Below are positions 10,762-42,506 of a stretch of DNA of 43,197 nt, piece after piece (within the stretch, counting starts at the first letter, position 1; each line of letters starts with the position of its first letter). This DNA comes from Acidobacteriota bacterium (GTDB lineage: Bacteria; Acidobacteriota; Terriglobia; Acidiferrales; UBA7541). The stretch is taken from the NCBI GenBank assembly GCA_003131985.1, contig PKWH01000231.1:1-43197 (forward strand), in the 5' to 3' direction. Made by a program: the position numbers and the translations under genes. The notes under the pieces are model-generated. The model did not search any database. It saw only the letters and a program-made list of their open reading frames with translations, and was not told where the DNA came from.

Positions 10762-10866
10762 CCCTAGAGTACCATTTGGCCAAGCGAATGCTTCGTACAG
10801 GACCTGCTAAGATGGGAGTTGTTTCAGGCATACGCGAGTTGAAGATGGGCACCCGGGAAATCTACT

Positions 10867-11102: not shown

Positions 11103-11114
11103 CGCAGTGGCAAA

Positions 11115-11732
11115 ATGAGACCAAATCTCAAATCCGAATGCGACACTGAGAAAGCAGCCAGGCAGGATGGTGTCATTGGGTATCCCTGGTTCGCTTTGCA
11201 GGTTCGAACGCGCCATGAGTCAGGCGTTGCGAATTATTTGCTTGGCCAAGGTTACGAGTCGTTTCTTCCGCTTTACAAGTGCCGCAAGCGCTGGTCCGAC
11301 AGGGTTAAGGAAGTGCAGACTCCCTTGTTTCCTGGTTACTTATTTTGCCGGTTCGATCCTCAGGACCGGCTGCCCATTATGAAGACTCCGGGCGTAATGC
11401 AAATAGTGGGAGTGAACCGCGTGCCGGCTCCGGTGGATGAAGTTGAAATCGGCGCTATCCAGACTTTGGTAGCGTCGGGTATTCCAAATCAGCCCTGGCC
11501 ATTTTTGCAGGTAGGCGAGAGGGTGCGAATTGAGTCAGGTTCTTTGAGCGGTCTTGAAGGAATCCTGATGGATTTTAAGGGGACTCAGCGGCTCGTACTT
11601 TCGATCACGCTGCTTCAACGTTCCGTATCAGTGGAAATCGATAGTGCGTTTGTTTCGTCTACGGCCTCGTCGCAGCGATCGCGATTGGAAAAAACATTGG
11701 CCGTGTGCAGGCCAGTTCAGATCGTGGTCTAA
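11115..11732 (+). CDS. NusG-family paralog (RfaH/UpxY/LoaP-like operon-specific transcription antiterminator)
   Basis: NGN domain WFALQVRTRHESGVANYLLGQGYESFLPLY...LFPGYLFCRF and KOW-like VGERVRIESGSLSGLEGILMDF. It is the first gene after the conserved leader, at the head of the biosynthetic genes. Confidence 0.85.
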   Translation: MRPNLKSECDTEKAARQDGVIGYPWFALQVRTRHESGVANYLLGQGYESFLPLYKCRKRWSDRVKEVQTPLFPGYLFCRFDPQDRLPIMKTPGVMQIVGVNRVPAPVDEVEIGAIQTLVASGIPNQPWPFLQVGERVRIESGSLSGLEGILMDFKGTQRLVLSITLLQRSVSVEIDSAFVSSTASSQRSRLEKTLAVCRPVQIVV

Positions 11733-11790
11733 CAGCGAAATTGGCTGACGCTGAAATGAGTTTCGGAGAACGATTTAGCAAAGAGGTTGA

Positions 11791-12954: not shown

Positions 12955-13019
12955 TCTGATGACACTCCTGGAAAAATCCGAACGTTTCGAAGCTCTCTGG
13001 CTTAGCGCGCCGGGGATTT

Positions 13020-13041
13020 AGACCGCTTGCGCGGTTTGTTT
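13020..13041 (+). terminator. Weak candidate intrinsic terminator after the priming transferase
   Basis: agaccgc-ttgc-gcggttt stem (7 bp including one G-U) followed by gttt. The stem is short and the U-tract poor. Confidence 0.3.
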
Positions 13042-13097
13042 CGACGGCCGCAAAAATTCTGTCCTTTCAGGATTTGAACTCTCAGGGTGAAAAAAAG

Positions 13098-14162
13098 ATG
13101 GCTACTAGTCTAGATGTTGACGCTGCGACAAAACTCGGGAAACAGCGGGATTCAAACGAGAGCGTGATTAGGATGGGCGTGATCGGGTACGGTTACTGGG
13201 GCCCGAACATTGTCCGGAATTTTCACGGACAAGAGCGTTCCCGCGTGGTCGCCATTTGCGACAAGACGCCTAAGTCACTGCAGCGCGCCCGGCAGGCCTA
13301 TCCGGAAATTCGTGCGATCGATGATTGTAATGACATCCTCACTGCTACGGATATCGATGCGATCGCGATCGTGACACCGGTTTGGACCCACTATGAACTT
13401 GCCAAAATCGCCTTGGAAAATGGCAAACACGTGTTCGTTGAGAAGCCGTTTACGTGCACTACGGCGCAAGCCGAGGAACTGATCGAACTAGCGGAGCGCA
13501 AGAAGCTGAAGATCATGGTGGACCACACGTTTTTGTTCACCGGCGCCGTCAAGCGCATCAAGGAATTCATTGATAACGGTACGCTCGGAGATCTCTATTA
13601 CTACGACTCCACGCGCGTAAACCTCGGACTCTTTCAGCATGATGTAAATGTGCTCTGGGATCTGGCGCCGCACGATCTTTCGATTATGGATTATCTGCTC
13701 AAGGATAAGCCCGAGGCGATCGTCGCCACCGGTGAGCGCCATTTAAATGGTGTTGCCGATATCGCATTTCTCACTCTCTACTATCCGAACAACATGATCG
13801 GGCACATTAACGTGAACTGGCTGTCGCCGGTAAAGGTGCGTACAACTCTCATCGGCGGTGAGAAGAAAATGCTGGTTTGGAACGATCTCGAAGCTGACGA
13901 AAAGCTGAAAATATACGACAAGGGTGTGCAAATGAGCGGCGACGGAGTCTATCAACTGCTCGTGAGCTACCGTTCCGGCGATATGTGGGCGCCTCGAGTC
14001 GAACAGGTGGAAGCGCTCAAGTTAGAAGCGGCGTATTTCGTTGACTGCATTCTAAACAATAAAAAGCCGTTTAATGATGGAGCCGCGGGATTGCACGTTG
14101 TACAGGTGCTGGAAGCCGCCGATCAGTCGTTGCAGCAAAGAGGAAAAGTAATCCGGTTGTAG
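13098..14162 (+). CDS. Gfo/Idh/MocA-family NAD-dependent sugar-nucleotide oxidoreductase (WbpB/WlbA-like)
   Basis: Rossmann motif MGVIGYGYWGPNIVRNF and EKP motif VFVEKPF. The track ORF starts at TTG 13074. I prefer the in-frame ATG at 13098. Confidence 0.8.
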   Translation: MATSLDVDAATKLGKQRDSNESVIRMGVIGYGYWGPNIVRNFHGQERSRVVAICDKTPKSLQRARQAYPEIRAIDDCNDILTATDIDAIAIVTPVWTHYELAKIALENGKHVFVEKPFTCTTAQAEELIELAERKKLKIMVDHTFLFTGAVKRIKEFIDNGTLGDLYYYDSTRVNLGLFQHDVNVLWDLAPHDLSIMDYLLKDKPEAIVATGERHLNGVADIAFLTLYYPNNMIGHINVNWLSPVKVRTTLIGGEKKMLVWNDLEADEKLKIYDKGVQMSGDGVYQLLVSYRSGDMWAPRVEQVEALKLEAAYFVDCILNNKKPFNDGAAGLHVVQVLEAADQSLQQRGKVIRL

Positions 14163-14209: not shown

Positions 14210-14950
14210 TCACTCCCTGATATAGTACGTCATTTCTCCGCCGTCGGTTGTGACGCGAAAACCTTGGCACGCGGCATCAAGCACCGCCTTGCACCCTGGA
14301 CGCATATAATCGTGCAATTCAATCACAATTCCTTTGACTCCACGCATCCAATCGGCGCAGTTCGCGAAGGCTTCGATTTCTCCGCTTTCGATGTCCATTT
14401 TGAGGAGGTCAATCGATTCAATCCCGGTTTCGCGCATCAAGGTTTGCATAGTAATGCCGCGAACGGGGATACCGGTCTCGGTGACCATGAACGCCCACTT
14501 TCCCTCGTCCGTCGGAACTATTCTTATAGGCCCGAGATGAAGGTTGCCATCAGAGTTCCACAAGGCCGCGTTAACTGGAACGACGTTGGGGTACGCCGCC
14601 ACGTTTTTCAGCAACATGGCATAGTTGGACGGCTCAGGCTCAACGGCAACTATCCTTGCGAGGGGATATTTATTCGCGTAGAACAAAGTGGCCATTCCGA
14701 CGTTCGCCCCGGCATCAATAATCGTTCTGGGCGTGAACGGCAAAGCTATGTTGTATGCTTGACGAAGCAGAAGATCGTTGAACAACGAGACGTCGGATGT
14801 TCTGATCCGGATATGGACGGGATGTTTGACGCCGCGCGGCGAGACCGAAATCTCCTTCGGTATGCCGAAAAGTCGGTTGGAACAGGCGCAAAGAAGCCCA
14901 CGAATTCCAAAGACCTGGTAATACCCGACTATGCCTTCGTAGACGCTCAA
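14210..14950 (-). CDS. FkbM-family SAM-dependent methyltransferase
   Basis: IIDAGANVGMATLFYANKYPLARIVAVEPEPSNYAMLLKNV and LLKMDIESGE are typical FkbM signatures. The + ORF 14264..14992 is antisense shadow. Confidence 0.8.
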   Translation of the reverse strand: MSVYEGIVGYYQVFGIRGLLCACSNRLFGIPKEISVSPRGVKHPVHIRIRTSDVSLFNDLLLRQAYNIALPFTPRTIIDAGANVGMATLFYANKYPLARIVAVEPEPSNYAMLLKNVAAYPNVVPVNAALWNSDGNLHLGPIRIVPTDEGKWAFMVTETGIPVRGITMQTLMRETGIESIDLLKMDIESGEIEAFANCADWMRGVKGIVIELHDYMRPGCKAVLDAACQGFRVTTDGGEMTYYIRE

Positions 14951-15142
14951 GGTGGAATCTGCCTCGTGACTTCACACGCATTGCCGGAATGATCCCACAA
15001 TCGGTTACTGAATGGAAGACATAACCAATCTCTAAAGTCCGTCTCGTCATCGGCTACTGCGTCTGGACAGGATCGAACTCTAGTACCTGACGTGGTTCAT
15101 CTCGTAGCTTTGAATTTCCAATAAAAGAGGAAGAAGCCAAAT

Positions 15143-15662: not shown

Positions 15663-17102
15663 GTGGTACCCAACAAGCATTTCCAATTTGGCGGCGGTCT
15701 TCAGGAGACACTGCTGCACCCCATTGTGCTGGTCGCAATGGTTGTGTCAGTTATCCTGATACTATTTCTGCCCCGAAAATATGTGATCGTGCCGGTGCTC
15801 GTTACCTCGTTACTTGTACCCCTAGGGCAGCAAGTGGTGGTGGGCGGATTACATCTTTTTGTGATGCGGATCATCATTCTGTTCGGCTGCATCCGCATGC
15901 TGATTTCAAAGATGTCATCACAAGACGAGCTTCTTGCCGGTGGATTCAACTCCGTGGACAAGTGGTTCACGCTGTGGGCCGTTTTCCGGACCTTAACAGC
16001 CCTCGTTTTGTACGCATCGGTAGCGGCTGTGATTGGCGAATCCGGTTTCCTCTGGGACGTGTTTGGAGGATATTTTCTTTTGAGGTTTCTAATTCGCGAC
16101 TACGAGGACATTACTCGGGCCGCCAAGGTTCTTGCGCTAATCGCGGTTGTTGCTGCTGCGGGTATGTTGAACGAGAGGCTGCACTTTCAGAATGTATTCG
16201 GGTTTCTGGGAGGCGTCCCCATCGTACCGACCATTCGCATGGGAACCATCCGGGCGCAAGGCCCATTTATGCACGCTATTTTGGCTGGCACATTCGGCGG
16301 TACTGTGGCGCCGTTGTTCTTCTGGCTATGGAAGATCGCGAAATCCAAATTCCTCGCCGTGATTGGCGTAATTTCATCGGCAGTCATCGTAGTGGCAGCG
16401 GCATCGAGTACGGCCTTGATGGCCTTTGGCGGAGGCATCTTCGCGATATGTTTGTGGCCGTTCCGGAAGAAGATGCGGCAGGTCCGCTGGGGAATCGTCA
16501 TTTTGCTTCTCGCGTTGAGTCTCGTTATGAAGGCGCCCGTTTGGTTCGTGATTTCTCACGTGGATATAGTAGGCGGGAACTCAAGCTACCAGCGCGCTTA
16601 CCTGATCGACCAGTTCATAAGGCATTTCGGCGATTGGTGGCTCCTAGGCACCTTTCAAAGCGATTCCTGGGGAGTTGACATGTGGGATCACACCAATCAA
16701 TTCGTCGCCGAGGGTGAATCCGGCGGTTTGATCACACTGTACTGTTTCATTGCCATGATCTCTGTCAGTTTTGGAATGATCGGGAAGGCGAGGAAAGCCA
16801 TAGAAGGGGATAAAGAAAAGGAGTGGATGCTCTGGATCCTCGGCGCCGGGCTTTTCGCCCACATCGTCGGGTATTTCGGAATCAGCTATTTCGACCAGAC
16901 TCGCGTGGCCTGGTTTGTATTGCTGGCTATGATCAGCGCAGCCAGCGCTCCCATGCTGGCGTCGCAGGCAGCAACGGAGACCGTACCCGATCGGGGATTG
17001 TTCGCCTCACGCCTTGCGAATCGGCCTGCCCTGGCACATACAGCGGCCGGAGGCGTCCCCAGCTTCAGATGGGACAGCAAACGTTCGGGACGCTTGAATT
17101 AG
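15663..17102 (+). CDS. Polytopic membrane protein, putative O-antigen/EPS polymerase or ligase-like (Wzy-like)
   Basis: 479 aa with about 10 or more hydrophobic segments and one larger loop, located among glycosyltransferase and flippase genes. The assignment rests on topology and context only. Confidence 0.5.
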   Translation: MVPNKHFQFGGGLQETLLHPIVLVAMVVSVILILFLPRKYVIVPVLVTSLLVPLGQQVVVGGLHLFVMRIIILFGCIRMLISKMSSQDELLAGGFNSVDKWFTLWAVFRTLTALVLYASVAAVIGESGFLWDVFGGYFLLRFLIRDYEDITRAAKVLALIAVVAAAGMLNERLHFQNVFGFLGGVPIVPTIRMGTIRAQGPFMHAILAGTFGGTVAPLFFWLWKIAKSKFLAVIGVISSAVIVVAAASSTALMAFGGGIFAICLWPFRKKMRQVRWGIVILLLALSLVMKAPVWFVISHVDIVGGNSSYQRAYLIDQFIRHFGDWWLLGTFQSDSWGVDMWDHTNQFVAEGESGGLITLYCFIAMISVSFGMIGKARKAIEGDKEKEWMLWILGAGLFAHIVGYFGISYFDQTRVAWFVLLAMISAASAPMLASQAATETVPDRGLFASRLANRPALAHTAAGGVPSFRWDSKRSGRLN

Positions 17103-17339
17103 AAGGGTTTAACCTTTGTTCGGACCTGTGAGGCGCGTGGAGGAGCCTCCGACCTGTCCTCAAACTGTCCCCGCGGGCAGTAGTCGCCCTAAGCGGTTGT
17201 GGATAACATCATCCCAGTTGCATTTCACAGAGCTGAAAGTGAAAGAACTTTTGGCATGGAATGTCTCGGCTGGATGATGAGGGAGACGATGCGTAAAACA
17301 GTTCTTTTTAGGGGAATTCAGGTCCTTCGTGGTGTCCGA

Positions 17340-19139
17340 ATGAAAAAAACATATCTTTTTATGCTGGTCCTGTTGTTCGCTCCGCTCGCGGCTCGCGCCG
17401 CTGGAGGTGGAGCATGCCCTTCCGACGCACAGTACGTTAATCCGACCAATCCGACTGGACCACTTGTAACGCTTTCCAGTATCGGCATCACGAGTTGCTT
17501 CTACTTTGCTGACAGTGGCCTCGACACCAATGCCGGCACCACGGAAGCTGCCCCATTTTTGCATGCTCCCTTCATGCCGAACTGCGCATCATCGTGCGCT
17601 GCAGCTCAGGCTGCTTTTGGCCCGGGAGAGGGAATCATTGCGCGTGGAGGTGATACCTGGCACTACTTTTCGGGCACTCCTCTAATCGGCTTGCCGAGCG
17701 GCTGGCCTACAGGCAAAAATGGCTACGCATGGCATATGACTGTGAGCGGGACAAGCGCGAATCCAGTCTACATCGGCGTGGACAAAAATTGGTTCTCGGG
17801 CAGCGCATGGACGCGCCCGGTAATCACTACGGACAACCCTATTTTCACGCCATCTGCTCCAGCGTTTTCAAACCCTGCCTCGACATCTGTTTCACGTTGC
17901 GCCTTTCCGCAAGGGAATTTAGATGACTTCGCGGTTACCGGCCCCACGTTCTGGATATTCGATAATTTCGAATTCACGGGCATGTGCTGGAACGATAGAA
18001 CCGATGGCGGCACCGGCTCGAACGAGCACAATATGATTAAGCAGTTTCAGGGCGGCGGCACGGGAAGTTCTCCCCGCTATATTTTCAATACCTACACACA
18101 CGGCTGGAGCCACACGAGTTTCGCAGATTGCGCCAGCTCGGGAGCCTGCAACGGTCCATCCGCATTTCTGGGGAGCACTCAGGCGATCGACTCTGGACTT
18201 GTACTCGCATTCAACGTAGTGGATGGCTCGGATTCCGACGATTTCTCATTCAGCTTCGGATTCGGTGATGGTTACGACGTGGAAGAAAACGTCTTTAGGC
18301 ACTTAGGTGGGACGCAGATATTTGATAATTGCCATTCGGTCCATGACAACCTGTTCGAGTACATCAATAATGGGAACGATAATATGACTCACGGGGATAT
18401 GTTTTTCTGCGAGAGCGATGTCCAGCCGACGCAGAACAATTTCTTCTATAATAATTTAGTTCGGTATATAGCTACGGAATACAATCAAGACGCGCTCTCG
18501 GCGGTTTGGTGGCTCACTCCGTCACCCGGAAAAGCCGACTATTTTTACAATAACGTGGGCCATGACGTGAACTGTGATGGCGACTGCAACAATATGGGGC
18601 AATCGGGGCAATCTAATAGCAGTTCGCAAATTCTGATCTACAATAACACCTGGCAGTCGGTGCCCGTCAATGGACAGAATTTTAAGATTTTCGGCAACAC
18701 TTCATTCCCGGGAGCCATCACCAGTCAAAACAATCACTGGATTACGAATGGAGGAACCGGCTGCGGAAATATATTCACCGGAACCGCAAACGTCAACGGC
18801 GGAAACACCGCGTGCTCGGGCGACGTATTCCAGACGATTGCAGCAGCGAATGCGCAGGGATACACGTCCGCCAACGACTATGCCCCGACGGCAGCATCTA
18901 CAGCCACGGCAGGGAAAGTGGAGAACGAAACCGGCATCGCCGGCACATTCGGTCTAGCGTTCCTACAGAGCACCTCGAATGGGTGTGCTTACAACCCCGC
19001 AGGCCATACGGTGACTTGCCCGGCGATAACCGTATCCAATCGGCCATCCATCGGAAACTGGGATGCCGGAGCATACGTATCCGGCAGCTCCGACCAGCCC
19101 CCAGCACCGGCGAATCTGGCAGCAACCGTCAACAACTAG
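17340..19139 (+). CDS. Secreted Cys-rich protein with parallel beta-helix-like repeats (possible polysaccharide lyase or hydrolase)
   Basis: The internal ATG at 17340 gives a clean signal peptide, MKKTYLFMLVLLFAPLAARAAGG. Recurrent N-N/aromatic rungs occur (NNFFYNNLVRY, DYFYNNVGHD, ILIYNNTWQS, SQNNHWITNG). The track ORF start at 17199 is probably an upstream extension. Confidence 0.45.
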   Translation: MKKTYLFMLVLLFAPLAARAAGGGACPSDAQYVNPTNPTGPLVTLSSIGITSCFYFADSGLDTNAGTTEAAPFLHAPFMPNCASSCAAAQAAFGPGEGIIARGGDTWHYFSGTPLIGLPSGWPTGKNGYAWHMTVSGTSANPVYIGVDKNWFSGSAWTRPVITTDNPIFTPSAPAFSNPASTSVSRCAFPQGNLDDFAVTGPTFWIFDNFEFTGMCWNDRTDGGTGSNEHNMIKQFQGGGTGSSPRYIFNTYTHGWSHTSFADCASSGACNGPSAFLGSTQAIDSGLVLAFNVVDGSDSDDFSFSFGFGDGYDVEENVFRHLGGTQIFDNCHSVHDNLFEYINNGNDNMTHGDMFFCESDVQPTQNNFFYNNLVRYIATEYNQDALSAVWWLTPSPGKADYFYNNVGHDVNCDGDCNNMGQSGQSNSSSQILIYNNTWQSVPVNGQNFKIFGNTSFPGAITSQNNHWITNGGTGCGNIFTGTANVNGGNTACSGDVFQTIAAANAQGYTSANDYAPTAASTATAGKVENETGIAGTFGLAFLQSTSNGCAYNPAGHTVTCPAITVSNRPSIGNWDAGAYVSGSSDQPPAPANLAATVNN

Positions 19140-29407: not shown

Positions 29408-32329
29408 ATGCCTTTTGACATGCAGACAAACCTAAAAAATGCGGGACGCCAGATCGAGGCCCAACATGGAGCTCCAGGGCTTGTCTTCTGGATTACCGGC
29501 TTATCCGGCGCGGGCAAGACAAGCGTGGGGCGTGAATTGTGGAACCGGCTGCGCGCCGCCGGGCGTCCGGTCACCTTCCTCGACGGCGACGCGCTCCGTG
29601 CTGTGATCGCCGAAGATCTTGGCCACAGCACGGCCGACCGGCGGCGATCGGCGATGCGCAACGCGCGGTTGTGTCGGTTGCTGGCGGCGCAAGGCGCCGA
29701 TGTCGTCTGCGCGACCATCTCACTGTTTCACGAGGTGCAGCGTTGGAACCGCGAGAACATTCCCGGATATCGCGAAATCTACCTACGGGTCCCGATAGAT
29801 GAGCTAAAGCGTCGGGATAGCAAGGGCATCTATGCCGGGGCTGAACGCGGCGACGCGCGCGACGTCGTTGGCCTTGACGTGCCGGCGGAGGCTCCCGAGG
29901 CGCCGGACCTGGTCCTGGACAATCATGGCGGGCTCGATGTTGCCACCGCGGTCGAGCGCATCTTGTCGGTTTGCGACAGGCGGGATGGCACGGCACGGAC
30001 GGCGCACCTCGTTACCTTCAAGACGAAGGCGGAATCTCTGGAAGCGCTGGCGCCGCTGCTGCGCAATGGGCGCGTCCTGCCGCAGGTCCGATTTTCAGTT
30101 GGCGATTGGCGCTCGGACGCCGCTGGCGTGCTCGCTGCCGTCGCCGCCGTGCCCTGGGGTTCAAAACGGGTCATCGTGCGTAGCAGTGCACGGAGCGAAG
30201 ACGGCGCAGAGAGCTCCCAGGCCGGGAGATACGATTCCGTACTCGGTGTCGTCGGCAGCGCAGCACTGGCACAGGCAATCGATCAGGTGATTGACTCCTT
30301 TGCCGATGAGAGTAGCGACGACCAGATCTTCGTGCAACCCATGCTTGACCGCGTATCGATGGCCGGCGTGGCTTTCTCGCGCAGTCCCGGCGGCGGCCCT
30401 TATTTTGTTATCAATTACGACGACCGTTCCGGCCTGACCGATCGCGTGACCGCCGGTGTCGGAGACAATCTCGAGACTTTTCTTTGCCTCAAATCGCGGC
30501 CTGAGGCTTGTCCCCCGTTGCTGGCGCCGGTTATCGCTCTCATGAGCGAGCTCGAAACTCTCTTGGGGTGTGATGCAATCGACGTGGAATTCGCCGTTGG
30601 TGACGACGAGCAGCTCTACCTTCTGCAAGTTCGCCCACTCGCCGTCGACCGGTGGGAGCGGGCAGCAGACGCAAAGGTCGACGCCGCGCTTGCTGATGTC
30701 GCGCGCAAGGTCGAGCTGCTCAGCCGCCCGCATCCATACTTGCACGGTAGCAAAGCAGTATTCGGAGTCATGCCGGACTGGAACCCGGCGGAAATCATCG
30801 GGGTGCGGCCCTGGCCACTCTCGTTGTCGCTCTACCGCGAACTTATCACCGACGCGATCTGGGCGTATCAGAGAGACAACTACGGATACAAGAATCTTCG
30901 CAGTTTTCCGCTGCTGGTCAGCTTTCACGGACTGCCCTACATCGACGTGCGTGTCAGCTTCAACTCCTTCATACCAAGCGACGTACCCGACGATCTAGCC
31001 GGGCGTCTCGTAAATTACTACATCGCTCGCCTCCTATCCGAACCGCATCTCCATGACAAAGTCGAATTCGAGATCATCTTCTCCTGCTACACGTTGGATT
31101 TGCCGAAACGAATGCGCAGGCTGGCCGAGCACGGATTTTCCGCAGAAGACCTTGCCGAAGTTTCGGGCGCCCTACGGCGCCTCACCAATCGCATCATCCA
31201 TGGCGACACCGCGCTGTGGCGGGGCGACCGCGCTAAGATTGACCTGCTGGCACGGCGGTTACCGACGATCTGCAACGCAAAAATCGACAAGATCAGCCGC
31301 ATTTACTGGCTGATCGAAGACTGCAAGCGATACGGCACGCTGCCGTTCGCCGGTCTGGCGCGAGCGGGCTTCATAGCGGTTCAGCTGCTCCAGTCTTTCG
31401 TTGAAGTGGGCGTTCTCACTGCCGAAGAGGCTGCGACATTCATGGCGAGTGTCGATACCGTCGGGTCTCGCATCGGCCAAGATTTCGCGCAACTTCCGAA
31501 GGCAGATTTCCTCGCACGCTACGGCCACCTCCGGCCGGGCACTTACGACATCCTTTCGCCGCGCTACGACGAGGCGCCCGATCTCTATTTCGACTGGTCG
31601 AGTGCCCGAACGACGGCGTCCGCGTCCCCGCGCTTTGCGCTGTCGATCGAGCAGTTGCGACGCATCGAACAGCTGCTCAAGGAACATGAGCTCGACATCG
31701 ACGTCTTGAGCTTGATCGAGTTCATCAGGGCTGGCATTGAAGGCCGCGAATACGCAAAGTTCGTGTTCACGCGAAGCTTGAGCGACGCTCTGTCGCTGAT
31801 CAGGGAGCTGGGCGAGGATCATGGTGTTTCGGCGGAGGATTGTGCGTTTCTAAATTACGACGCCATCCGCACGCTCTATAGCGAGAGCGCTCCGGTGCGC
31901 GAGGTGTTGCTGGAGAGCATCGCGCATGGTAGAGAGCGTCACGCGCTCACCCGCAACCTCGTTCTTCCACCGAACATCACATCGCCCGACGAAGTGTTCG
32001 CATTTTATCTCCCCCCAAGCCAGCCTAATTTCATCACGCGAAAAAGCGTCACCGCACCGGTCGCGTCCATCGGCGACCCACCGGAGAGCTTCGCTGGACG
32101 GATTCTTTTCGTGCCAAGCGCGGACCCCGGCTTCGATTGGATCTTCACTCGTGGTATCAGCGGATTCGTCACCCAGTTCGGCGGTGCCAATTCGCACATG
32201 GCGATCCGTGCCGGCGAGCTCGGCATACCCGCCGTAATCGGCGCCGGCGAAGCGCTGTTCCGGCGATGGCAGTCGGCGCGCAAGCTATGCCTCGATTGCA
32301 CGAACCAGAAGGTCTTGGTCATCGCATGA
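29408..32329 (+). CDS. Two-kinase fusion: N-terminal APS-kinase-fold domain (CysC/Cj1415-like) plus a PEP-utilising/PPDK-type phosphohistidine kinase (Cj1418 L-glutamine-kinase-like)
   Basis: Residues ~25-190 read VFWITGLSGAGKTSVG...FLDGDALR...ADRRRSAMRNARL...ISLFHEVQRWNR...EIYLRVPIDELKRRDSKGIY, an adenylylsulfate-kinase pattern. Residues ~200-973 contain a PPDK_N-like nucleotide-binding region (GVAFSRSPGGGPYFVINYDD). The C-terminal swivel domain reads ILFVPSADPGFDWIFTRGISGFVTQFGGANSHMAIRAGELGIPAVIG, with the candidate phospho-His at codon 930 (nt 32195..32197). RBS aggga. Confidence 0.75.
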   Translation: MPFDMQTNLKNAGRQIEAQHGAPGLVFWITGLSGAGKTSVGRELWNRLRAAGRPVTFLDGDALRAVIAEDLGHSTADRRRSAMRNARLCRLLAAQGADVVCATISLFHEVQRWNRENIPGYREIYLRVPIDELKRRDSKGIYAGAERGDARDVVGLDVPAEAPEAPDLVLDNHGGLDVATAVERILSVCDRRDGTARTAHLVTFKTKAESLEALAPLLRNGRVLPQVRFSVGDWRSDAAGVLAAVAAVPWGSKRVIVRSSARSEDGAESSQAGRYDSVLGVVGSAALAQAIDQVIDSFADESSDDQIFVQPMLDRVSMAGVAFSRSPGGGPYFVINYDDRSGLTDRVTAGVGDNLETFLCLKSRPEACPPLLAPVIALMSELETLLGCDAIDVEFAVGDDEQLYLLQVRPLAVDRWERAADAKVDAALADVARKVELLSRPHPYLHGSKAVFGVMPDWNPAEIIGVRPWPLSLSLYRELITDAIWAYQRDNYGYKNLRSFPLLVSFHGLPYIDVRVSFNSFIPSDVPDDLAGRLVNYYIARLLSEPHLHDKVEFEIIFSCYTLDLPKRMRRLAEHGFSAEDLAEVSGALRRLTNRIIHGDTALWRGDRAKIDLLARRLPTICNAKIDKISRIYWLIEDCKRYGTLPFAGLARAGFIAVQLLQSFVEVGVLTAEEAATFMASVDTVGSRIGQDFAQLPKADFLARYGHLRPGTYDILSPRYDEAPDLYFDWSSARTTASASPRFALSIEQLRRIEQLLKEHELDIDVLSLIEFIRAGIEGREYAKFVFTRSLSDALSLIRELGEDHGVSAEDCAFLNYDAIRTLYSESAPVREVLLESIAHGRERHALTRNLVLPPNITSPDEVFAFYLPPSQPNFITRKSVTAPVASIGDPPESFAGRILFVPSADPGFDWIFTRGISGFVTQFGGANSHMAIRAGELGIPAVIGAGEALFRRWQSARKLCLDCTNQKVLVIA

Positions 32330-35578: not shown

Positions 35579-36463
35579 ATGGTACTTGTTTGGAAAGAAA
35601 TGAATAAAACAAAAAATAAAAGGATTCAAAAAGATCTGGACCGAATTGTAGCAGCGCTAGATGCAGGCGGCAAAATCTATCGGTCGAGATCGATGGGAAA
35701 TGTGCGTGTGCACAAGAAGGGAAGCGGTGACGCTGTCACGGACGTAGAGCTTCAAGTGAATCAACTGTTGTTTGAAATGCTGGTAGAAGCCGGAGATGGC
35801 TGGCTTTCCGAAGAAGACGTCGATAACGAGGATCGATTGCGATGTTCGCGGGTTTGGCTCGTCGATCCACTCGATGGAACAATAGAATATGTCGAGGGAA
35901 TACCAGAATGGTGCATTTCGATCGCCTTAATGGAAGGTGGCGAACTTATTGCCGGGGGAATATTGAATCCCCAGACCGATGAACTCATATACGGATCGCG
36001 CGAAATCGGGGTCGTCTGCCGTAATGGGCAGGCTCATAGTGCTGAAATGAAAATTCCGCCGCGCGAAGCGCTCGTGCTTGCGAGCCGCAGTGAAGTAAAG
36101 CGCGGAGAATGGAAGCGATTCAGCCAAGGTCCGTTTCAGACCCTAGCCGTGGGATCGGTAGCTTACAAACTAGCCTTGGTTGCGGCTGGCAAAGCCGATG
36201 CCACTTGGACGCTGGTGCCAAAGAGCGAGTGGGATGTTGCAGCCGGAGTCGCACTCTTGCAGTTCGCGCAAGGACATTTGCTAACGACGGAAGGCTTCCC
36301 ACCTACTTTTAATCGAAGAAACACTCGTTTCCCAGGTTTAGTTGGATTTTCTGCGGCGGGACTCGATCGACTGCGCCCTTTCCTCAAGTCCGTATTGGAA
36401 GCCGATGAGTTTCGTGATTGCCTTGCGTGGGCCCGCCCGTTGGCAGCCCTGGACCAGAAATAA
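35579..36463 (+). CDS. Inositol-monophosphatase/CysQ-superfamily phosphatase (candidate 3'(2'),5'-bisphosphate nucleotidase)
   Basis: Metal and substrate motifs LSEED, WLVDPLDGTIEYVEG.PEWCISIAL and WDVAAG. The CysQ-versus-SuhB subfamily cannot be decided by eye. An alternative start is at ATG 35600. Confidence 0.75.
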   Translation: MVLVWKEMNKTKNKRIQKDLDRIVAALDAGGKIYRSRSMGNVRVHKKGSGDAVTDVELQVNQLLFEMLVEAGDGWLSEEDVDNEDRLRCSRVWLVDPLDGTIEYVEGIPEWCISIALMEGGELIAGGILNPQTDELIYGSREIGVVCRNGQAHSAEMKIPPREALVLASRSEVKRGEWKRFSQGPFQTLAVGSVAYKLALVAAGKADATWTLVPKSEWDVAAGVALLQFAQGHLLTTEGFPPTFNRRNTRFPGLVGFSAAGLDRLRPFLKSVLEADEFRDCLAWARPLAALDQK

Positions 36464-36560
36464 AACGGAGAAGGATGAAGTCGCGGTAAATAGTTTAAGT
36501 AATAATTCTTCAAGGCCGGATATACCCCGTTTCTTTGGTGCTATGATTGGAAAGCTCTTT

Positions 36561-36581
36561 GCAGGCGTCGGCCTGCTTTTT
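36561..36581 (+). terminator. Rho-independent terminator
   Basis: gcaggc-gtcg-gcctgc forms a perfect 6-bp GC-rich stem with a 4-nt loop, followed by ttttt. It lies about 100 nt after the phosphatase stop and about 30 nt before leader copy B. Confidence 0.6.
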
Positions 36582-36609
36582 GACATACGCGACGCATGAG
36601 AATCTGGTT

Positions 36610-36844
36610 CTATGTCCTTTATTAGGTTTAGTTTGGGTGTGGGAAAACGAGTGGCATTCTGGGATAGCAATATTCATAAAGATATTCGGCCACCGTCCCA
36701 TTGGCTGCCAGCGCCCTCGGCCGTTACAAATTAAGGTATTCATTGTCATATACTTACGAGGATGAGGGCAAAGGTTCGTCATGGCATCCATCGTGCAATC
36801 CGGTAGGTGAGAGGTCAATTGTGACTCTCATGGCGGTAGCACAA
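36610..36844 (+). promoter_or_regulatory. Conserved ~235-nt leader element, copy B, ending in a hairpin plus an ops-like GGCGGTAGC
   Basis: Direct repeat of 10867..11102. Hairpin gagaggtca-attg-tgactctc is at 36809..36829 and GGCGGTAGCA at 36832..36841, 90 nt upstream of the DegT ATG. It starts just after a terminator, so it probably contains a promoter as well. Confidence 0.5.
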
Positions 36845-36930
36845 GATTTCGTTCAGAAGCGGCATTCGGCGACTGCAGCTCTAATCCCTTCAGCGCGCAC
36901 GACTAAACCATCACGGAGCAAAACCAGATT

Positions 36931-38169
36931 ATGTCAAACAACGAAAAAATCCCATTCTTGGACTTGGTGAGCCTGCACGAGGAGCTGGAAGCCGAGCTGG
37001 TTCCTGTTTTTCAAAAGGTGCTGCGCACGGCGTCCTTTGTCGGCGGGCCGATGGTGGAGGATTTCGAGCGCGAATTTGCCGCCTTTTGCGATGCGAAATA
37101 CTGCGTCGGGCTTGCTAGCGGCACAGACGCGGTGCGATTTGCGCTGATGGCCGCGGGAGTACAGCCCGGGGATGTGGTCATCACTGTTGCCCACACATTC
37201 ATCGCCACCACCGAGGGAATCAGCCAGGCGGGCGCGCGTCCGGACTTCGTGGATATCGATGAACGCACATACTGCATGGACCCCGTAAAGCTGAAGGAAT
37301 ATATCGAGCGGGAATGCTATGTGGATCGCGAAACCGGAACGCCATACCACCGAAAGCTTAGAGCGCCAGTGACGGCGATTGTGCCAGTGCACATCTACGG
37401 CCAGATGGCGGACATGGATCCGATCATGGAATTAGCGCGTCGCTACAACTTGATTGTTGTAGAGGACGCCTGCCAAGCCCACGGCGCCGAGTATTTTTCG
37501 AAGAAAGAGAATCGCTGGATGAAAGCCGGGTCCATGGGACATGCCGGAGCGTTTAGCTTCTATCCGGGGAAAAATCTGGGTGCCTGTGGCGAAGCCGGCG
37601 CCGCCACCACCAATAGTGAAGACATTGCGCGAAAAATGCGCATGTTGCGCGATCATGGCCAGTCGAAGAAGTACTATCACGATATCGAGGGATACAACGG
37701 CCGTTTGGATTCGCTTCAGGCCGGAATTCTAAGCGTCAAGCTCCGGCACCTGGCTGATTGGAATCGCAAACGTCAGGAAGTTGCGGGGCGCTATCACGAG
37801 TTGTTTTCCGATGCCAAGGGCGTCACTCTGCCGCACGAGCCTGAATCATCCCGCGCCGTGTACCACTTATATGTAGTTCGGGTCCGAGACCGAGAAGGAC
37901 TGCAGAAACATCTTGGCGAAGCCAAAATCGATACCGGCATTCACTACCCTGTTCCGTTGCACATGCAGAAGGCGTATGCGAATTACGGTTATAAATTCGG
38001 CGACTTTCCGGTTACCGAGAGAATCGCCGCGGAAATTGTCTCTCTTCCGATGTTTCCGCAATTGACTGAAAAGCAACAGCGTGGTGTTGTAGAAAACGTA
38101 AAAGAATTTGCATCAAAGGAAATCGGGAAGCGGGATGCGGTGCGTGAGCCGCAGACCTCTTCCGTCTAA
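36931..38169 (+). CDS. DegT/DnrJ/EryC1/StrS-family PLP-dependent sugar aminotransferase
   Basis: IPFLDL...FE.EFA.F...KYCVGLASGTDAVRFAL, VPVHIYGQMADMD, and the PLP-lysine region AFSFYPGKNLGACGEAG. Confidence 0.9.
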   Translation: MSNNEKIPFLDLVSLHEELEAELVPVFQKVLRTASFVGGPMVEDFEREFAAFCDAKYCVGLASGTDAVRFALMAAGVQPGDVVITVAHTFIATTEGISQAGARPDFVDIDERTYCMDPVKLKEYIERECYVDRETGTPYHRKLRAPVTAIVPVHIYGQMADMDPIMELARRYNLIVVEDACQAHGAEYFSKKENRWMKAGSMGHAGAFSFYPGKNLGACGEAGAATTNSEDIARKMRMLRDHGQSKKYYHDIEGYNGRLDSLQAGILSVKLRHLADWNRKRQEVAGRYHELFSDAKGVTLPHEPESSRAVYHLYVVRVRDREGLQKHLGEAKIDTGIHYPVPLHMQKAYANYGYKFGDFPVTERIAAEIVSLPMFPQLTEKQQRGVVENVKEFASKEIGKRDAVREPQTSSV

Positions 38170-38260
38170 TCGTCGGATGTTCTGTGCGCTTTCGCAATTT
38201 CAATCGTCGCATCACAGAGCATTCCCTACCATGCAGTATCCGCTGATACAGCTGTGAATC

Positions 38261-39451
38261 ATGGCTAGACCCCTTTTCGCATTATCGGTGGAAGCCGATA
38301 CCCTGACGCAGATTGCTTCTCTGAACCAATCTGTTGTGGCGGGGCTCGTTTCCATGTTCGATCCCGAGCGAAAACTCTTCTGCCACCGGCTGCGGCTGGG
38401 CGAAAGTGGATTAGTTCGAGAGGGAATTTCTCATCGCTACACCATGATCGCGCTGTTGGGTCTCCAACGATTGCGATCCACCGGAGTCTCGATTCCGCTG
38501 GATCTTCCATCGATTTTGCAGGTTCTGATTCAGGACACCCGCTGGCTTGAAAATGTCGGCGACCTCGGTTTGCTTGTGTGGCTTTGTGCCTTGGTGTCTC
38601 CCGAGCGCCTAGCCGAAATTGATTCCCAATTCGATTTGAAACATGCTCTGGCTCACTTCCACGAGACTCGCCGGGGAAGAACGATGGAGCTGTCCTGGTT
38701 TCTCTCGGGCCTCGCCCACCAGAAGCTAGCGTGCCCGGACCTGCTTCCGCACCTGCGCGATACCGCCATGGAGACGTATCAGCTTCTGAGGAAGAATCAG
38801 GGCGAGCACGGAGTGTTCAGCCACCTCGCGGAAAACGGAGGCTTGACCGGGCTGATGCGCGGACGCATGGGAAGTTTTGCGGATCAAGTTTATCCCATCT
38901 ATGCGTTGGCCAAATTTTCTAGAGCGTATCAAGTGCCGAAGGCTGCCGAGCGTGCGCTGGACGCCGCGTTGACGCTGTGCGAATTGCAGGGTCCTCATGG
39001 TCAGTGGTGGTGGCACTACGACGCGGCCACTGGGAAGGTATTGGGTCAGTATCCTGTTTACTCTGTGCACCAATATGGCATTGCGCCCATGGCCCTTCTA
39101 GCGTTGGGAGAAGAGACTCAATCAGATTTTACTCCCTGGATTTATAAGGGACTACGATGGATTCACGGGGACAACGAGCTTGAACAGGATATGCGAGATA
39201 GTTCGGCAAACGTAATTTGGAGATATATTTATCGCAACGATTACAAAAAACATTGGGATGTCGCTCTCGCGGTGCTAATGGCGCGCGGAGATGCCCAACC
39301 TCACAAGGAACTTGCGGTCCTGCACGAGTGCCGTCCATACGAACTCGGCTGGCTGCTCTATGCTTTCGCCGGGCACCGAATGGGACAGCAAGGTCTGCCC
39401 GGCACGGCTCCTATAATAGCGACGCGATTGACCGAACGCATTCAACAATGA
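38261..39451 (+). CDS. Conserved hypothetical protein (helix-rich, possibly alpha/alpha-toroid-like)
   Basis: 396-aa ORF in an operon-like position between the DegT and deacetylase genes. It has periodic aromatic/Leu-rich helical segments (ELSWFLSGLAH, VYPIYALAKFSRAY, GQWWWHYD..YPVYSVHQYGIAPMALLALGE). No catalytic motif was recognised. Confidence 0.4.
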   Translation: MARPLFALSVEADTLTQIASLNQSVVAGLVSMFDPERKLFCHRLRLGESGLVREGISHRYTMIALLGLQRLRSTGVSIPLDLPSILQVLIQDTRWLENVGDLGLLVWLCALVSPERLAEIDSQFDLKHALAHFHETRRGRTMELSWFLSGLAHQKLACPDLLPHLRDTAMETYQLLRKNQGEHGVFSHLAENGGLTGLMRGRMGSFADQVYPIYALAKFSRAYQVPKAAERALDAALTLCELQGPHGQWWWHYDAATGKVLGQYPVYSVHQYGIAPMALLALGEETQSDFTPWIYKGLRWIHGDNELEQDMRDSSANVIWRYIYRNDYKKHWDVALAVLMARGDAQPHKELAVLHECRPYELGWLLYAFAGHRMGQQGLPGTAPIIATRLTERIQQ

Positions 39452-39486
39452 CATCGCCGCGATCTAAAATCTGATTCGTACCGGAA

Positions 39487-40410
39487 ATGGATAAATCTAA
39501 GACAGCTTCGCGTAGTGAGGCGGCGACCAAGCCGGGATTCCGCTTGGATCGCGCCGTCACTCTTGGATTGATTCGTCCCGCAAGGGAAGCATTTTCTCGA
39601 CAGGCTCAAAATCGAATTCCAATATTGATGTACCACAGCATCCAGGACGGGGCGAGTGACAGGCGTCCGTATTTCGACATCAACACATCTCCAGGTCGAT
39701 TCGCTCAACAGATGAAGTTCCTGCGCGAGCAGGGATACCGAGCGGTGCATTTGGAAGAGGCTTGGAAGTTACTTGCAGCGGATCACTGGGATTCCCGCTA
39801 CGTGGTCATCACTTTCGATGATGGTTATCGCGACTTTCTGACGGCCGCCTACCCAATCATGGCGGAATTCGGTCACACAGCGGCGCTATTCGTTCCGTCC
39901 GGCTTGATTCAGGATGAACGCGCGCATTTTCAGCAAAGGGAGTGCCTGACTTGGGACGAGATTCGAGAGCTTCATACGAATGGCATTGAGATTGGATCGC
40001 ATTCCGTTACGCACCGTGAGTTGAAATTCTTGCGAACGTCAGAGTTGGAGGCAGAGGTGTCGGACTCGAAGCAGACTATCGAGGATAAGATCGGCCACTC
40101 CATAAGATCGTTCTCCTATCCCTACGCGTTCCCGGAGTCCGAGGCCGTATTTTCCCAAACTCTTCGAGAACTGCTTGAGAAGCACGGTTATAAGAACGGA
40201 GTCACCACAATTATTGGGAGCTCCGGCCGTGAGTCAGATAGATTTCTTCTTCCCAGGCTGCCCGTGAATTCCTGGGACGACATTCCGCTGTTTCGCGCGA
40301 AACTAGAAGGCCACTACGATTGGCTGCACGCCGCGCAATACCTGGCAAAAAAGGTCCGGCGTTCCGCACGGCCGCGACAAACGCCCGCTGCCATCGAAAC
40401 CTCCTCATGA
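39487..40410 (+). CDS. Polysaccharide deacetylase (NodB homology domain)
   Basis: VVITFDDGYRDF (the D-D metal/catalytic motif), LTWDEIRELHTNGIEIGSHSVTH (H-x-x-x-H region) and SFSYPY. Confidence 0.85.
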   Translation: MDKSKTASRSEAATKPGFRLDRAVTLGLIRPAREAFSRQAQNRIPILMYHSIQDGASDRRPYFDINTSPGRFAQQMKFLREQGYRAVHLEEAWKLLAADHWDSRYVVITFDDGYRDFLTAAYPIMAEFGHTAALFVPSGLIQDERAHFQQRECLTWDEIRELHTNGIEIGSHSVTHRELKFLRTSELEAEVSDSKQTIEDKIGHSIRSFSYPYAFPESEAVFSQTLRELLEKHGYKNGVTTIIGSSGRESDRFLLPRLPVNSWDDIPLFRAKLEGHYDWLHAAQYLAKKVRRSARPRQTPAAIETSS

Positions 40411-40553
40411 TGGATGTGCATGGAAGCGAGGTTTGTTTTTTGCGGAACCCGACGCTTATTGCAACTTAACGCGAATTTAAAACGGCTTAAGATTTCTTAT
40501 TTAGAAGTTAGGCGACCAACCGCATTATTCCAATAGAGGTGATCTGAGATTGT

Positions 40554-42506
40554 ATGTGCGGTATCTGCGGCAAATTCGAATTTGACCTTCAGGCGAGTGT
40601 CTCGCCGGCGCTCGTAAAGGCGATGGCCGACGCGATTTCGCATCGAGGTCCAGATGATGAGGGGTATTACGTCTCTGGCCCGATCGGCTTGGGCTTTCGC
40701 CGCCTTTCTATCATCGATCTAAACACGGGTCACCAACCCATCTCAAACGAAGATGGCAGCGTCTGGATCGTCTTTAACGGCGAGATCTACAACTACCAGG
40801 AATTGCGCGAGCACTTATTGTCTCGGGGACATGTCTTCAAGACGCGAACTGATACGGAGGTAATCGTTCATCTCTATGAAGAGTTCGGCGAGGGTTGCGT
40901 CGAGAAGCTGCGGGGAATGTTCGCCTTCGCCATTTGGGATAATCGCAACAAGCTGCTCTTTATCGCGCGGGATCGTCTGGGGATCAAACCGCTTTACTAT
41001 GCGTCGTCCTCCAAATCGTTAGTCTTCGCGTCCGAGATGAAGGCGATTTTGGCGGATCCCGAAGTTCGCCGAGAAGTCGAACCTGCCACAATCGACCGGT
41101 TTCTCTCTTTTAACTACACTCCAGGAGAGGAAACTTTCTTCAAGAATATCCGCAAGCTTCAGCCCGGCCACTACATCGTAGTACGTCAAGGCGAATTGCA
41201 CATTCGCCAGTATTGGGATCTGCATTTCTCGACCGAGCCAGAGCATCCGAATCAGAAGCAAGCTGAAGAACAACTGGTGAATTTACTCGAAGAGTCAGTC
41301 CGGCTGCACATGATCAGCGACGTTCCGGTCGGTTTCTTACTGAGCGGCGGTTTGGATTCAACCGCGATGCTGTCTCTGGCAGCCGGTAAGAGCGACCAAC
41401 CGATTAGCAGTTATACGATTGGTTTTTCCGAACCAGGGATTGAAGACGAAAGACCCTACGCTCGTCTGGCAGCAAGCCGATACGGCGTGAAGCACTATGA
41501 GATGACGATCACGTCGAAAGATTTCGTGGATTTTCTGCCCCAGTATGTCTGGCACATGGAAGAGGGAGTTTGCGAGCCGCCTGCGGTCGCGCTCTATTAC
41601 ATCTCAAAATTGGCGAAAGAACATGTGAAGGTTTTGATTTCCGGAGAAGGCGGGGACGAGGCTTTCGCGGGGTACCCAAACTACAGAAATCTTCTTTGGC
41701 TGGAGCGCCTGAAATCCGCTGCGGGCCCGTTGAAAAGCGTTTTTTCAGGGGTCCTTGGCGCTTTTAATTCTGTCGCGCGGTCAAAGAAAATTGCGAAATA
41801 CCTGCCGCTGCTTGATATGCCATTAAGTTCGTATTACTACAGCCGAACGGCGAGCCCGTTTAGTTTTTTCAATCTGCCCACCAATCCCGTGTATTCATCG
41901 GCTTTCGCCAGTGTTGTGGACAAGAGAAAGTCCGTGTCTGTCGTGCAGAAGTATCTCCAAGGCGACCTGAACAATCTAAACAAGATGTTATATGTGGACA
42001 CGAAAACCTGGCTACCTGACGATTTGCTTATAAAAGCCGATAAGATCACGATGGCTAATTCCATCGAATTGCGTGTTCCGTTTCTCGATCATAAGGTAAT
42101 GGAATTCGCAGCTTCGCTTCCCACCAACTTCAAGGTCCACGGTTTCACTACGAAATATCTGGCAAAGAAAGCTCTGAGCCACAGGGTTCCGCAAGAGATT
42201 ATTAATCGAAAGAAGACCGGATTCCCGGTCCCGTACGAATCCTGGCTCCGGACGGATTTAAACTCATGGCTTCGGGATCTGCTGTTCTCGCAGCGCGCGA
42301 TGGAAAGGGGCTACTTCGATCGGCGCGGCGTTGAGAATTTGTTTTCGAAGAATTCGGAAACCGGCGCTTACTCAAAGGAAATCTTTTGTCTCGCAGTTCT
42401 AGAATTGTGGCATCGCATCTTCTCCGACGGAGGCAATGTGCCCGTCTCTCATGAAGGCGGCAGACTGAGTGACAACGAAAGGTATTCTTGTCCCGTTGCA
42501 GAATAA
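40554..42506 (+). CDS. Asparagine synthase (glutamine-hydrolysing) family amidotransferase, of the type associated with exosortase loci
   Basis: The N-terminal nucleophile MCGICG and RGPDDEG..GLGFRRLSIIDL..GHQP. The synthetase domain carries the SGGLDS PP-loop (FLLSGGLDSTAM). Confidence 0.9.
   Translation: MCGICGKFEFDLQASVSPALVKAMADAISHRGPDDEGYYVSGPIGLGFRRLSIIDLNTGHQPISNEDGSVWIVFNGEIYNYQELREHLLSRGHVFKTRTDTEVIVHLYEEFGEGCVEKLRGMFAFAIWDNRNKLLFIARDRLGIKPLYYASSSKSLVFASEMKAILADPEVRREVEPATIDRFLSFNYTPGEETFFKNIRKLQPGHYIVVRQGELHIRQYWDLHFSTEPEHPNQKQAEEQLVNLLEESVRLHMISDVPVGFLLSGGLDSTAMLSLAAGKSDQPISSYTIGFSEPGIEDERPYARLAASRYGVKHYEMTITSKDFVDFLPQYVWHMEEGVCEPPAVALYYISKLAKEHVKVLISGEGGDEAFAGYPNYRNLLWLERLKSAAGPLKSVFSGVLGAFNSVARSKKIAKYLPLLDMPLSSYYYSRTASPFSFFNLPTNPVYSSAFASVVDKRKSVSVVQKYLQGDLNNLNKMLYVDTKTWLPDDLLIKADKITMANSIELRVPFLDHKVMEFAASLPTNFKVHGFTTKYLAKKALSHRVPQEIINRKKTGFPVPYESWLRTDLNSWLRDLLFSQRAMERGYFDRRGVENLFSKNSETGAYSKEIFCLAVLELWHRIFSDGGNVPVSHEGGRLSDNERYSCPVAE

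Follow-up and report, generated by a model that had tools for sequence, protein, structure and literature searches.

The contig PKWH01000231.1 of an Acidobacteriota bacterium (assembly GCA_003131985.1), analysed here over its whole length of 43,197 nucleotides (nt) and called the window throughout, carries an exopolysaccharide locus of the XrtA/PEP-CTERM type, with genes for PrsT, an export protein, a chain-length determinant, a system ATPase, a tyrosine kinase and an amidotransferase. Two operons of this locus concern us here. The first opens with a gene for a NusG paralog and goes on with genes for a priming glycosyl-phosphotransferase, an oxidoreductase, an acetyltransferase, a flippase, methyltransferases, GT2 and GT4 glycosyltransferases, RmlA-D and others. 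The second encodes a DegT/PseC-type aminotransferase, an unknown protein of 396 amino acids, a polysaccharide deacetylase and an amidotransferase of the XrtA/PEP-CTERM type. The same short composite element lies 5' of both, a hairpin followed by a match to the ops element of Escherichia coli, and this element and its likely partner, the NusG paralog, are the subject of our analysis (Table 1). An intrinsic terminator at 36561-36585, with GCAGGC-GTCG-GCCTGC at 36561-36576 followed by TTTTT, separates the first gene array from the promoter module of the second copy; within the operons, terminator-like sites are no more frequent than chance predicts, and only 36561-36576 with its T-run looks real.

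Table 1. Features of the two element copies, their predicted promoters and the associated genes, in window coordinates
Feature	Position	Strand	Remarks
Sigma-54-dependent activator gene	4238-5203	+	AAA+ and helix-turn-helix (HTH) domains, no receiver or sensor domain; heads the export-gene block
Conserved upstream module, copy A	10899-10938	+	GGAAAACAAGTGGAACTCTGGGATAGCAATGTTCATAGAG; ~170 nt 5' of the ops-type element
Sigma-54-type promoter, copy A (predicted)	11040-11055	+	-24 TGGCAT, -12 TGCA; predicted start ~11066
Covariance-model match, copy A	11063-11102	+	38.7 bits
Hairpin, copy A	11067-11086	+	GAGGGTCA-ATTG-TGACTCTC; 8 bp, one G-U; read from sequence
Ops-type element, copy A	11089-11100	+	GGCGGTAGCATA; position 11 = T at 11099
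NusG paralog gene, UpxY family	11115-11732	+	205 amino acids; first gene of the long glycan operon; presumed factor for both sites
Target operon 1 (putative)	11115-34628	+	~23.5 kb of co-directional polysaccharide genes (open reading frame map, family scans)
Conserved upstream module, copy B	36642-36681	+	same module as copy A
Sigma-54-type promoter, copy B (predicted)	36782-36797	+	TGGCATCCATCGTGCA; predicted start ~36808
Covariance-model match, copy B	36805-36845	+	43.3 bits
Hairpin, copy B	36809-36829	+	GAGAGGTCA-ATTG-TGACTCTC; one bulged G; predicted nascent-RNA pause hairpin
Ops-type element, copy B	36832-36843	+	GGCGGTAGCACA; position 11 = C, position 12 = A
Target operon 2 (putative)	36931-42506	+	3' of copy B

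Both copies contain GGCGGTAGCA on the plus strand, at 11089-11098 (copy A) and 36832-36841 (copy B), and in both only two nucleotides (AT) separate the end of the hairpin from the motif; direct reading confirms these positions and this spacing, which had been reported in the sequence-only reading of the window that preceded our analysis. Positions 1-9 match E. coli ops exactly in both, and positions 2-9 of the copy B element, GCGGTAGC, are identical to the non-template hairpin of E. coli ops, while positions 10-12 read ATA and ACA, i.e. they are without G12. The loop and 3' arm of the copy B hairpin hold TGTGACTCT, a block conserved throughout the family described below. The predicted folding energy of the RNA is -12.5 kcal/mol for copy A (z = -2.8) and -11.9 kcal/mol for copy B, with the opposite strand of copy A reaching only -7.0 kcal/mol. 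The exact 9-mer occurs only twice in the window against 0.27 expected, and two occurrences were reached in 3 of 100 shuffles; with one mismatch allowed there is no enrichment (7 matches against 9.0 expected). Both 9-mers sit in one duplicated segment, ~77% identical over ~250 nt, which makes them a single evolutionary event, as had been cautioned, and for this reason the window taken alone is weak evidence.

The evidence that carries the element comes from a comparison set of 80 genome loci with scrambled flanks, which encode relatives of the paralog with 55-95% identity. In 74 of these loci GCGGTAGC lies at most ~135 nt 5' of the NusG-paralog gene and keeps an invariant distance from the hairpin, so that the proposed comparison of orthologous leaders speaks for the motif; the exact sequence GGCGGTAG precedes the paralog gene in 66 of the 80. 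The 74 occurrences fall within 11.6 kb of upstream windows, for which the frequency in the remainder of these loci predicts 0.49. These counts bear directly on the explanation that the motif is a functionless chance 9-mer in one duplicated segment, for which the single duplication behind the window copies and the occasional shuffle with two matches could be adduced: occurrence at this frequency in independent loci, with fixed spacing and on one strand, refutes it and leaves it a negligible probability. In three of the remaining six loci the core is altered, to GGCGG-AGC in L014 and L015 and to GGCGGTGGC in L071; the other three (L017, L023 and L072) have no core upstream of the gene, with L017 and L023 having a copy ~2.2 kb downstream.

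The ungapped consensus of 76 sites is TGKGACTCTnaT-GGCGGTAGC-n-Y-R. No insertion or deletion separates the 3' arm of the hairpin from the motif in 75 of the 76, the flanks outside this block of ~35 nt are unconserved, and the distance from G1 to the start codon of the paralog gene is mostly 20-45 nt (26 nt for copy A). The earlier remark that positions 10-12 deviate from ops holds for the two window copies but not for the family: G1 is present in 68/76 sites, position 11 is a pyrimidine in 75/76 (T in 58, C in 17) and position 12 a purine in 71/76 (A in 38, G in 33), which are the bases of the pause consensus at -1 and +1, and in three loci the sequence, GGCGGTAGCGTG, does not differ from E. 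coli ops at all. In the E. coli element, bases 3-8 are needed for contact with RfaH and not for pausing, and G1G2, T11 and G12 make the pause at U11 (PMC5995543). The invariance of the centre thus argues for read-out by a protein rather than for pausing alone. Variation in copy number was also seen: L123 has two tandem element copies 54 nt apart (8309-8383) 5' of its paralog gene, and in L066, where ~2.4 kb separate two paralog genes, either gene has an element of its own (587-632 and 2889-2930), the two elements differing at position 1 and in the upstream block.

The hairpin is conserved as a structure. MAFFT alignments of it were ungapped and out of register and were discarded in favour of a seed of 24 sites with equal loop length, from which a covariance model was built; picking the seed for its best register, and fitting the second alignment to the model, biases both towards pairing, for which slid controls and the model-wide alignment served as the check, and the controls are exceeded by a large margin. 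In the seed 85% of the cells are paired, with 18 double-change cells, against 35-54% in the slid controls, and none of 500 shuffles was as high. Run over the window and the 80 loci the model returned 91 sites, two of them the window's own, all on the strand of the paralog gene; 82% of the cells in this alignment are paired, with 77 double-change cells, against 30-55% in the controls. A U-A pair replaced by C-G in 14 sequences exemplifies the compensatory changes. Because G-U pairs are frequent, the helix fits the plus strand only, and the loop nucleotides U(-11) and G(-10) are kept in 67-70 of the 76 sites. Within the window the model finds exactly the two sites of Table 1, the next best match scoring 9.1 bits. 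A 5' leader in which a hairpin and an adjoining single-stranded run are conserved could also mark a small structured cis-regulatory RNA, riboswitch-like or a leader targeted by a small RNA, that has no link to NusG-type proteins; in a few loci (L030, L032 and L041) GGCGG can even pair with a downstream CCGCC. This pairing is not general, is absent from both window copies and was dropped as a candidate; the structure amounts to one short helix, and Rfam covariance models, the JUMPstart family among them, gave no match at gathering score anywhere in the window and none even at E <= 10 in 10700-11200. Such an RNA would moreover leave the strong association with NusG paralogs unexplained, and we regard it as very improbable.

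The sequence-only reading had placed the hairpin at the 3' end of a long leader, a placement against which our promoter analysis speaks. Elements of a sigma-54-type promoter, TGGCAT-N6-TGCA, lie 35-36 nt 5' of the motif in both copies, and the pattern TGGCAY-N6-TGCW has only these two matches in the window against 0.36 expected. Across the family GG-N10-GC is found 32-48 nt (mode 43) 5' of the motif G1 in 58/76 sites, and a stricter sigma-54 pattern in 51/74 sites against 0.85 expected. From the standard -12 spacing we infer that transcription starts at the base before each hairpin, which would put the motif at about +24 to +35 and, the promoter being directly upstream, the hairpin at the 5' end of the transcript. 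A scan for sigma-70-type promoters and terminators around copy A found none. Hence the 250-nt repeat probably consists largely of promoter and enhancer DNA rather than leader RNA.

Further upstream, both copies share a module with the pattern GGAAAAC...TCTGGGATAGCAATGTTCA, in fuller form GGAAAAC..(A/G)GTGG(A/C)A(C/T)TCTGGGATAGCAAT(G/A)TTCATA, which is present at 35 of the 76 sites, mostly 154-180 nt 5' of the ops-type element, and on the plus strand in 29 of 31 occurrences. We regard it as a candidate enhancer (upstream activating sequence, UAS) of the sigma-54 promoter, or else a candidate second promoter. The likely activator of both promoters is the product of 4238-5203, whose matches to the NCBIfam models of NifA, AtoC, ZraR and the PEP-CTERM-box regulator cover only its AAA+ and HTH parts. 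Many metagenomes from peat, permafrost and soil, and metatranscriptomes as well, contain sequence nearly identical to 10300-13300 and 35900-38300, the metatranscriptome evidence consisting of assembled contigs of peat and permafrost RNA runs; therefore the lineage is widespread and the locus appears to be expressed in situ. A transcription start at 10906 was considered, as the contigs of three RNA runs begin there, and was rejected: in four DNA runs, too, the contigs end at this base, owing to the 37-mer at 10899-10935, a repeat found at 2-6 times the flanking depth in peat DNA runs, which makes 10906 an assembly artefact.

We also approached the association from the side of the motif, scanning metagenome contigs with TGKGAC-N6-GGCGGTAGC. 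Taken by itself this pattern is insufficiently specific: about 45 of the 120 stretches retrieved are one unrelated conserved coding stretch on the other strand, and the matches were therefore filtered with the covariance model and a profile hidden Markov model of the paralog. The coding stretch (L081, L083-L086 and about 40 further metagenome loci) encodes C-Y-R-R-x-G-H-N on its reverse strand, a segment that resembles 2-oxoglutarate dehydrogenase E1, and its matches are false positives for the element. The paralog profile places the gene beside 33 pattern matches. Of the first 80 metagenome loci scored with the covariance model, 25 reach at least 20 bits, and in 20 of the 24 that have a downstream open reading frame (ORF) this next ORF is NusG-family. 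The other four are an oxidoreductase like that at 13074-14162, an HTH protein and a small unknown ORF in two copies. Some genome loci have additional copies of the element, which lie 5' of a second paralog gene or of a gene for a priming glycosyl-phosphotransferase that shares 49% identity with 11791-12954. The element thus marks the heads of glycan-cluster transcription units, above all of the unit that begins with the paralog.

A signal of this kind need not be addressed to the paralog. It might be a promoter-proximal pause or attenuation signal, or a duplex operator, for some other factor, that is merely inherited together with the paralog gene while the paralog is recruited elsewhere or non-specifically: the flanks of the core fit the general pause consensus, the element lies 20-36 nt after the sigma-54 start, a position suited to a roadblock or an operator, and there are the 4 of 24 motif-first sites that precede other genes. 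Yet the central bases are invariant though not needed for pausing, the site is asymmetric and strictly oriented, and where it precedes a gene other than the paralog this gene belongs to the glycan cluster (sugar transferase, oxidoreductase, aminotransferase), the pattern expected of a regulon of the paralog. We accordingly hold this explanation to be improbable.

The paralog itself has a NusG NGN domain (Pfam, E = 1.2e-18) and belongs to the UpxY family, whose model NF033644 it passes with 110 bits against a cut-off of 100. The earlier account needs correcting here, as the protein is not RfaH: its scores fall below both RfaH cut-offs (TIGR01955, 82.9 against 144.5 bits; NF006534, 63.6 against 124), and H20, R23 and R73 of RfaH are missing from it. 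It likewise misses the cut-offs for LoaP (NF033641, 61.1 against 125 bits) and NusG (39.8 against 135.7). Its best solved relatives are RfaH chains (E = 4.5e-8). Within the paralog family P92 and K90 are invariant, Q45 is not conserved, and a basic beta-hairpin, CRKRWSDRxKE, is nearly invariant. An AlphaFold2 model shows an all-beta KOW domain at residues 136-182 with a per-residue confidence (pLDDT) of 73-81, in a model whose mean pLDDT is 57.8 and whose predicted template-modelling score (pTM) is 0.35; this confidence is too low for a fold search or for conclusions on the arrangement of the domains. There are 7922 relatives at E <= 1e-10; all 80 fetched loci and one named match among those listed are metagenome-assembled genomes (MAGs) of Acidobacteriota type, and the close relatives come from peat and soil Acidobacteriota (Acidoferrales/Terriglobia MAGs).

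Taking these lines together, we think it likely that the hairpin, the AT spacer and GGCGGTAGCnYR constitute a composite ops-type site at which polymerase pauses and the operon-encoded UpxY-family paralog is loaded. Recruitment of the NusG paralog with the aid of a pause hairpin, as the sequence-only reading had proposed, is the best-supported reading because of the conservation at a fixed distance, the compensatory changes in the hairpin and the association of motif-first sites with NusG-family genes; it also agrees with what experiments have shown for UpxY and opsX in Bacteroides (PMC11685472). An enhancer-dependent sigma-54 promoter would fire 35-36 nt 5' of the motif, making the hairpin the first RNA to be synthesized. 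The polymerase would then pause with the 3' end of the RNA at motif position 11, predicted to be 11099 in copy A and 36842 in copy B, where the pyrimidine at -1, the purine at +1 and G1G2 at -11/-10 match the elemental pause consensus. The nascent hairpin, its 3' end at -14, would stabilize this pause as the hairpins of class-I pauses do. Within the opened bubble, GCGGTAGC on the non-template strand may form the mini-hairpin familiar from E. coli ops. The NGN domain of the paralog would bind this mini-hairpin and probably also read the duplex TGKGACTCT at -23 to -15, in the zone of the Bacteroides UpxY contacts. Once loaded, the paralog would stay on the polymerase and suppress pausing and termination through the 23.5-kb operon and, from copy B, the second operon. 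Since its gene is the first after site A, the paralog would be made even without antitermination and, once made, would feed back positively on its own unit.

Several observations weigh against this account. First, sequence as such does not separate read-out at the level of RNA from read-out at the level of DNA. Second, the ops-contact residues of RfaH are mostly lost (alignment to 2OUG and 5OND): K10 corresponds to R31, H20 to Y41, R23 to G44, Q24 to Q45 and R73 to P92, so that reading the same DNA would call for a different pocket. Third, not every site has the hairpin, as no stem is obvious in ~10 loci that nevertheless keep TGGGAC and the motif; the retention of TGGGAC in these loci implies that the upstream block has a sequence role beyond pairing. 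Fourth, a sigma-54 element is lacking at 18 of the 76 sites. Fifth, metatranscriptome contigs reach 5' of the predicted start, and an adapter-bounded insert, 36564-36889, spans the copy B promoter, which may reflect an upstream start, read-through or carry-over of DNA.

The first two of these points invite an alternative in which recognition takes place on RNA, as proposed for LoaP, with the paralog (through KOW or NGN) or another protein binding the RNA hairpin together with a single-stranded GGCGGUAGC tail. The covariation of the hairpin, its kept loop nucleotides, the position of every site on the transcribed sense strand and the missing DNA-contact residues would all be accounted for, and LoaP is reported, as cited in PMC11685472, to act via a leader RNA hairpin. 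Against this, the eight invariant bases are exactly those of the E. coli non-template hairpin, and positions 11 and 12 vary within what pausing allows (Y, R) instead of being fixed in sequence. The loci that keep TGGGAC and the motif without a stem are also hard to reconcile with it, as is the score of the paralog, far under the LoaP cut-off; and the equivalent region in Bacteroides acts as duplex DNA, not as RNA, and is recognized by the NGN domain (PMC11685472). We consider recognition on RNA unlikely, and return to the loading of the paralog at an ops-type pause in what follows.

The closest known relative of the system is the UpxY/opsX pair of Bacteroides. In B. fragilis UpxY loads at an opsX of ~40 bp that consists of a NusA-enhanced pause hairpin, an upstream duplex and a YGCGNAGCR non-template hairpin, and its NGN domain reads the upstream duplex with contacts near -16 to -18, -21 to -24 and -31 to -34 (Saba et al., Nat Commun 2024, PMC11685472). 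The acidobacterial system has the same layout: the first gene of a polysaccharide operon encodes an UpxY-family paralog and has the site in its leader, and the site is multipartite, ~35-40 nt long and made up of a predicted pause hairpin, a conserved upstream region that would be duplex DNA at the pause, and a non-template hairpin of the form GCG..AGC. Its conserved TGKGACTCT block overlaps the zone of the first two groups of UpxY contacts, its hairpin ends at the same distance from the predicted pause as in class-2 opsX, and the start codon follows the pause by a few tens of nucleotides. There are also differences. The core here is GCGGTAGC, with a 2-nt loop of the E. coli type, instead of YGCGNAGCR, and one core serves diverged paralog clades whereas the cores of Bacteroides are locus-specific. 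No adjacent gene for the inhibitor UpxZ was found, the next gene, 58 nt downstream of the paralog, being the glycosyl-phosphotransferase. The promoter is sigma-54-type in place of the invertible sigma-A-type promoters of Bacteroides, and the system belongs to the Acidobacteriota. Two of the altered sites touch on this comparison: in L014 (2937-2976) and L015 (2922-2961) T6 is missing, which gives GCGGAGC, the form of the Bacteroides GCGNAGC non-template hairpin, and these sites appear as a natural intermediate between the E. coli and Bacteroides types.

With the RfaH/ops system there is full identity at positions 1-9, GGCGGTAGC (the 12-nt reference ops being GGCGGTAGnnTG), agreement at Y11 and R12, and a common placement in leaders of long glycan operons. 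In E. coli the GCGGTAGC hairpin forms on the non-template strand, and its T6 flips out into a pocket made by H20, R23, Q24 and R73 (PMC5995543); the paralog here scores under the RfaH cut-offs and is without three of these residues. It is further set apart from RfaH by being encoded in cis, in the operon that it presumably controls, by a site with an attached conserved hairpin and upstream block, where RfaH needs only the 12-mer, and perhaps by a KOW domain predicted as a beta-barrel in a model of low confidence, where RfaH has an autoinhibited alpha-helical KOW domain that refolds. In the E. coli system the polymerase pauses at position 11 and the factor delays its escape at positions 12/13. 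The same autoregulatory layout, with an RfaH-like factor and an ops-like site just 3' of its own promoter, is reported for PrfaH of IncX plasmids, which in that report belongs to a plasmid conjugation system in Enterobacteriaceae (Commun Biol 2025, PMC11880322). LoaP of Bacillus resembles the present paralog in lying beside its target cluster and in needing a leader hairpin for its action, but besides the family score it differs in being proposed to read RNA and in having no known ops-like DNA core. Ending 13-14 nt behind a predicted Y/R pause site, the nascent hairpin here also recalls the class-I hairpin pauses of the his and trp leaders, in which the hairpin likewise ends slightly more than ten nucleotides behind the pause. 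Those pauses serve the timing of attenuation, not the loading of a factor. The literature that we searched, whose coverage is incomplete, holds no report of an ops-type site or a NusG paralog in Acidobacteriota. We regard the element as a new example, in Acidobacteriota, of a mechanism described earlier for E. coli and Bacteroides.

Other genes of the locus bear on the polysaccharide itself. The 973-amino-acid product of 29408-32329 is a fusion of an adenylyl-sulfate kinase with a PEP-utilising/PPDK-like enzyme (NF004508, 936 bits), and a gene for a CysQ-like bisphosphate nucleotidase lies near it at 35579-36463, which together hint at a sulfated or phosphorylated polysaccharide. Five ORFs of the glycan cluster (14264-14992, 15663-17102, 17199-19139, 38261-39451 and 5866-7314) have no significant match in Pfam or NCBIfam; the last of them has a faint match to the PEP-CTERM outer-membrane family TIGR03016.

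RfaH is reported to be mostly confined to Proteobacteria, and its ops contacts have been considered a late acquisition (PMC7593976). Here the exact ops core has been kept although its presumed reader is without the RfaH pocket, and hence the question of how, and how often, NusG paralogs evolved sequence-specific recruitment becomes testable. We tentatively suggest, as a possibility that we hold with rather less than even confidence, that NusG paralogs across phyla board at the GCGGTAGC non-template hairpin, a signal either ancient or re-invented several times, and not a late proteobacterial invention tied to H20, R23 and R73; the acidobacterial reader, of UpxY type, would recognize it with other residues, and the signal would have become fused to a hairpin and an upstream-duplex code of the Bacteroides style. 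If this is true, the DNA hairpin presented by the polymerase constrains the signal more than does the protein that reads it, and the model of late acquisition of the ops contacts (PMC7593976) needs revision.

In terms of the biology of these bacteria, the site would extend ops-type loading of NusG paralogs to the Acidobacteriota, a phylum that is dominant in soil and peat but poorly studied, where it would control the long exopolysaccharide operons of XrtA/PEP-CTERM type that stand behind the formation of biofilms and soil aggregates. It comes with about 100 natural variants of one site, in which an exact E. coli ops core is combined with a hairpin and an upstream block like those of Bacteroides, and the covariance model can be used to define the regulon of the paralog in any acidobacterial genome.

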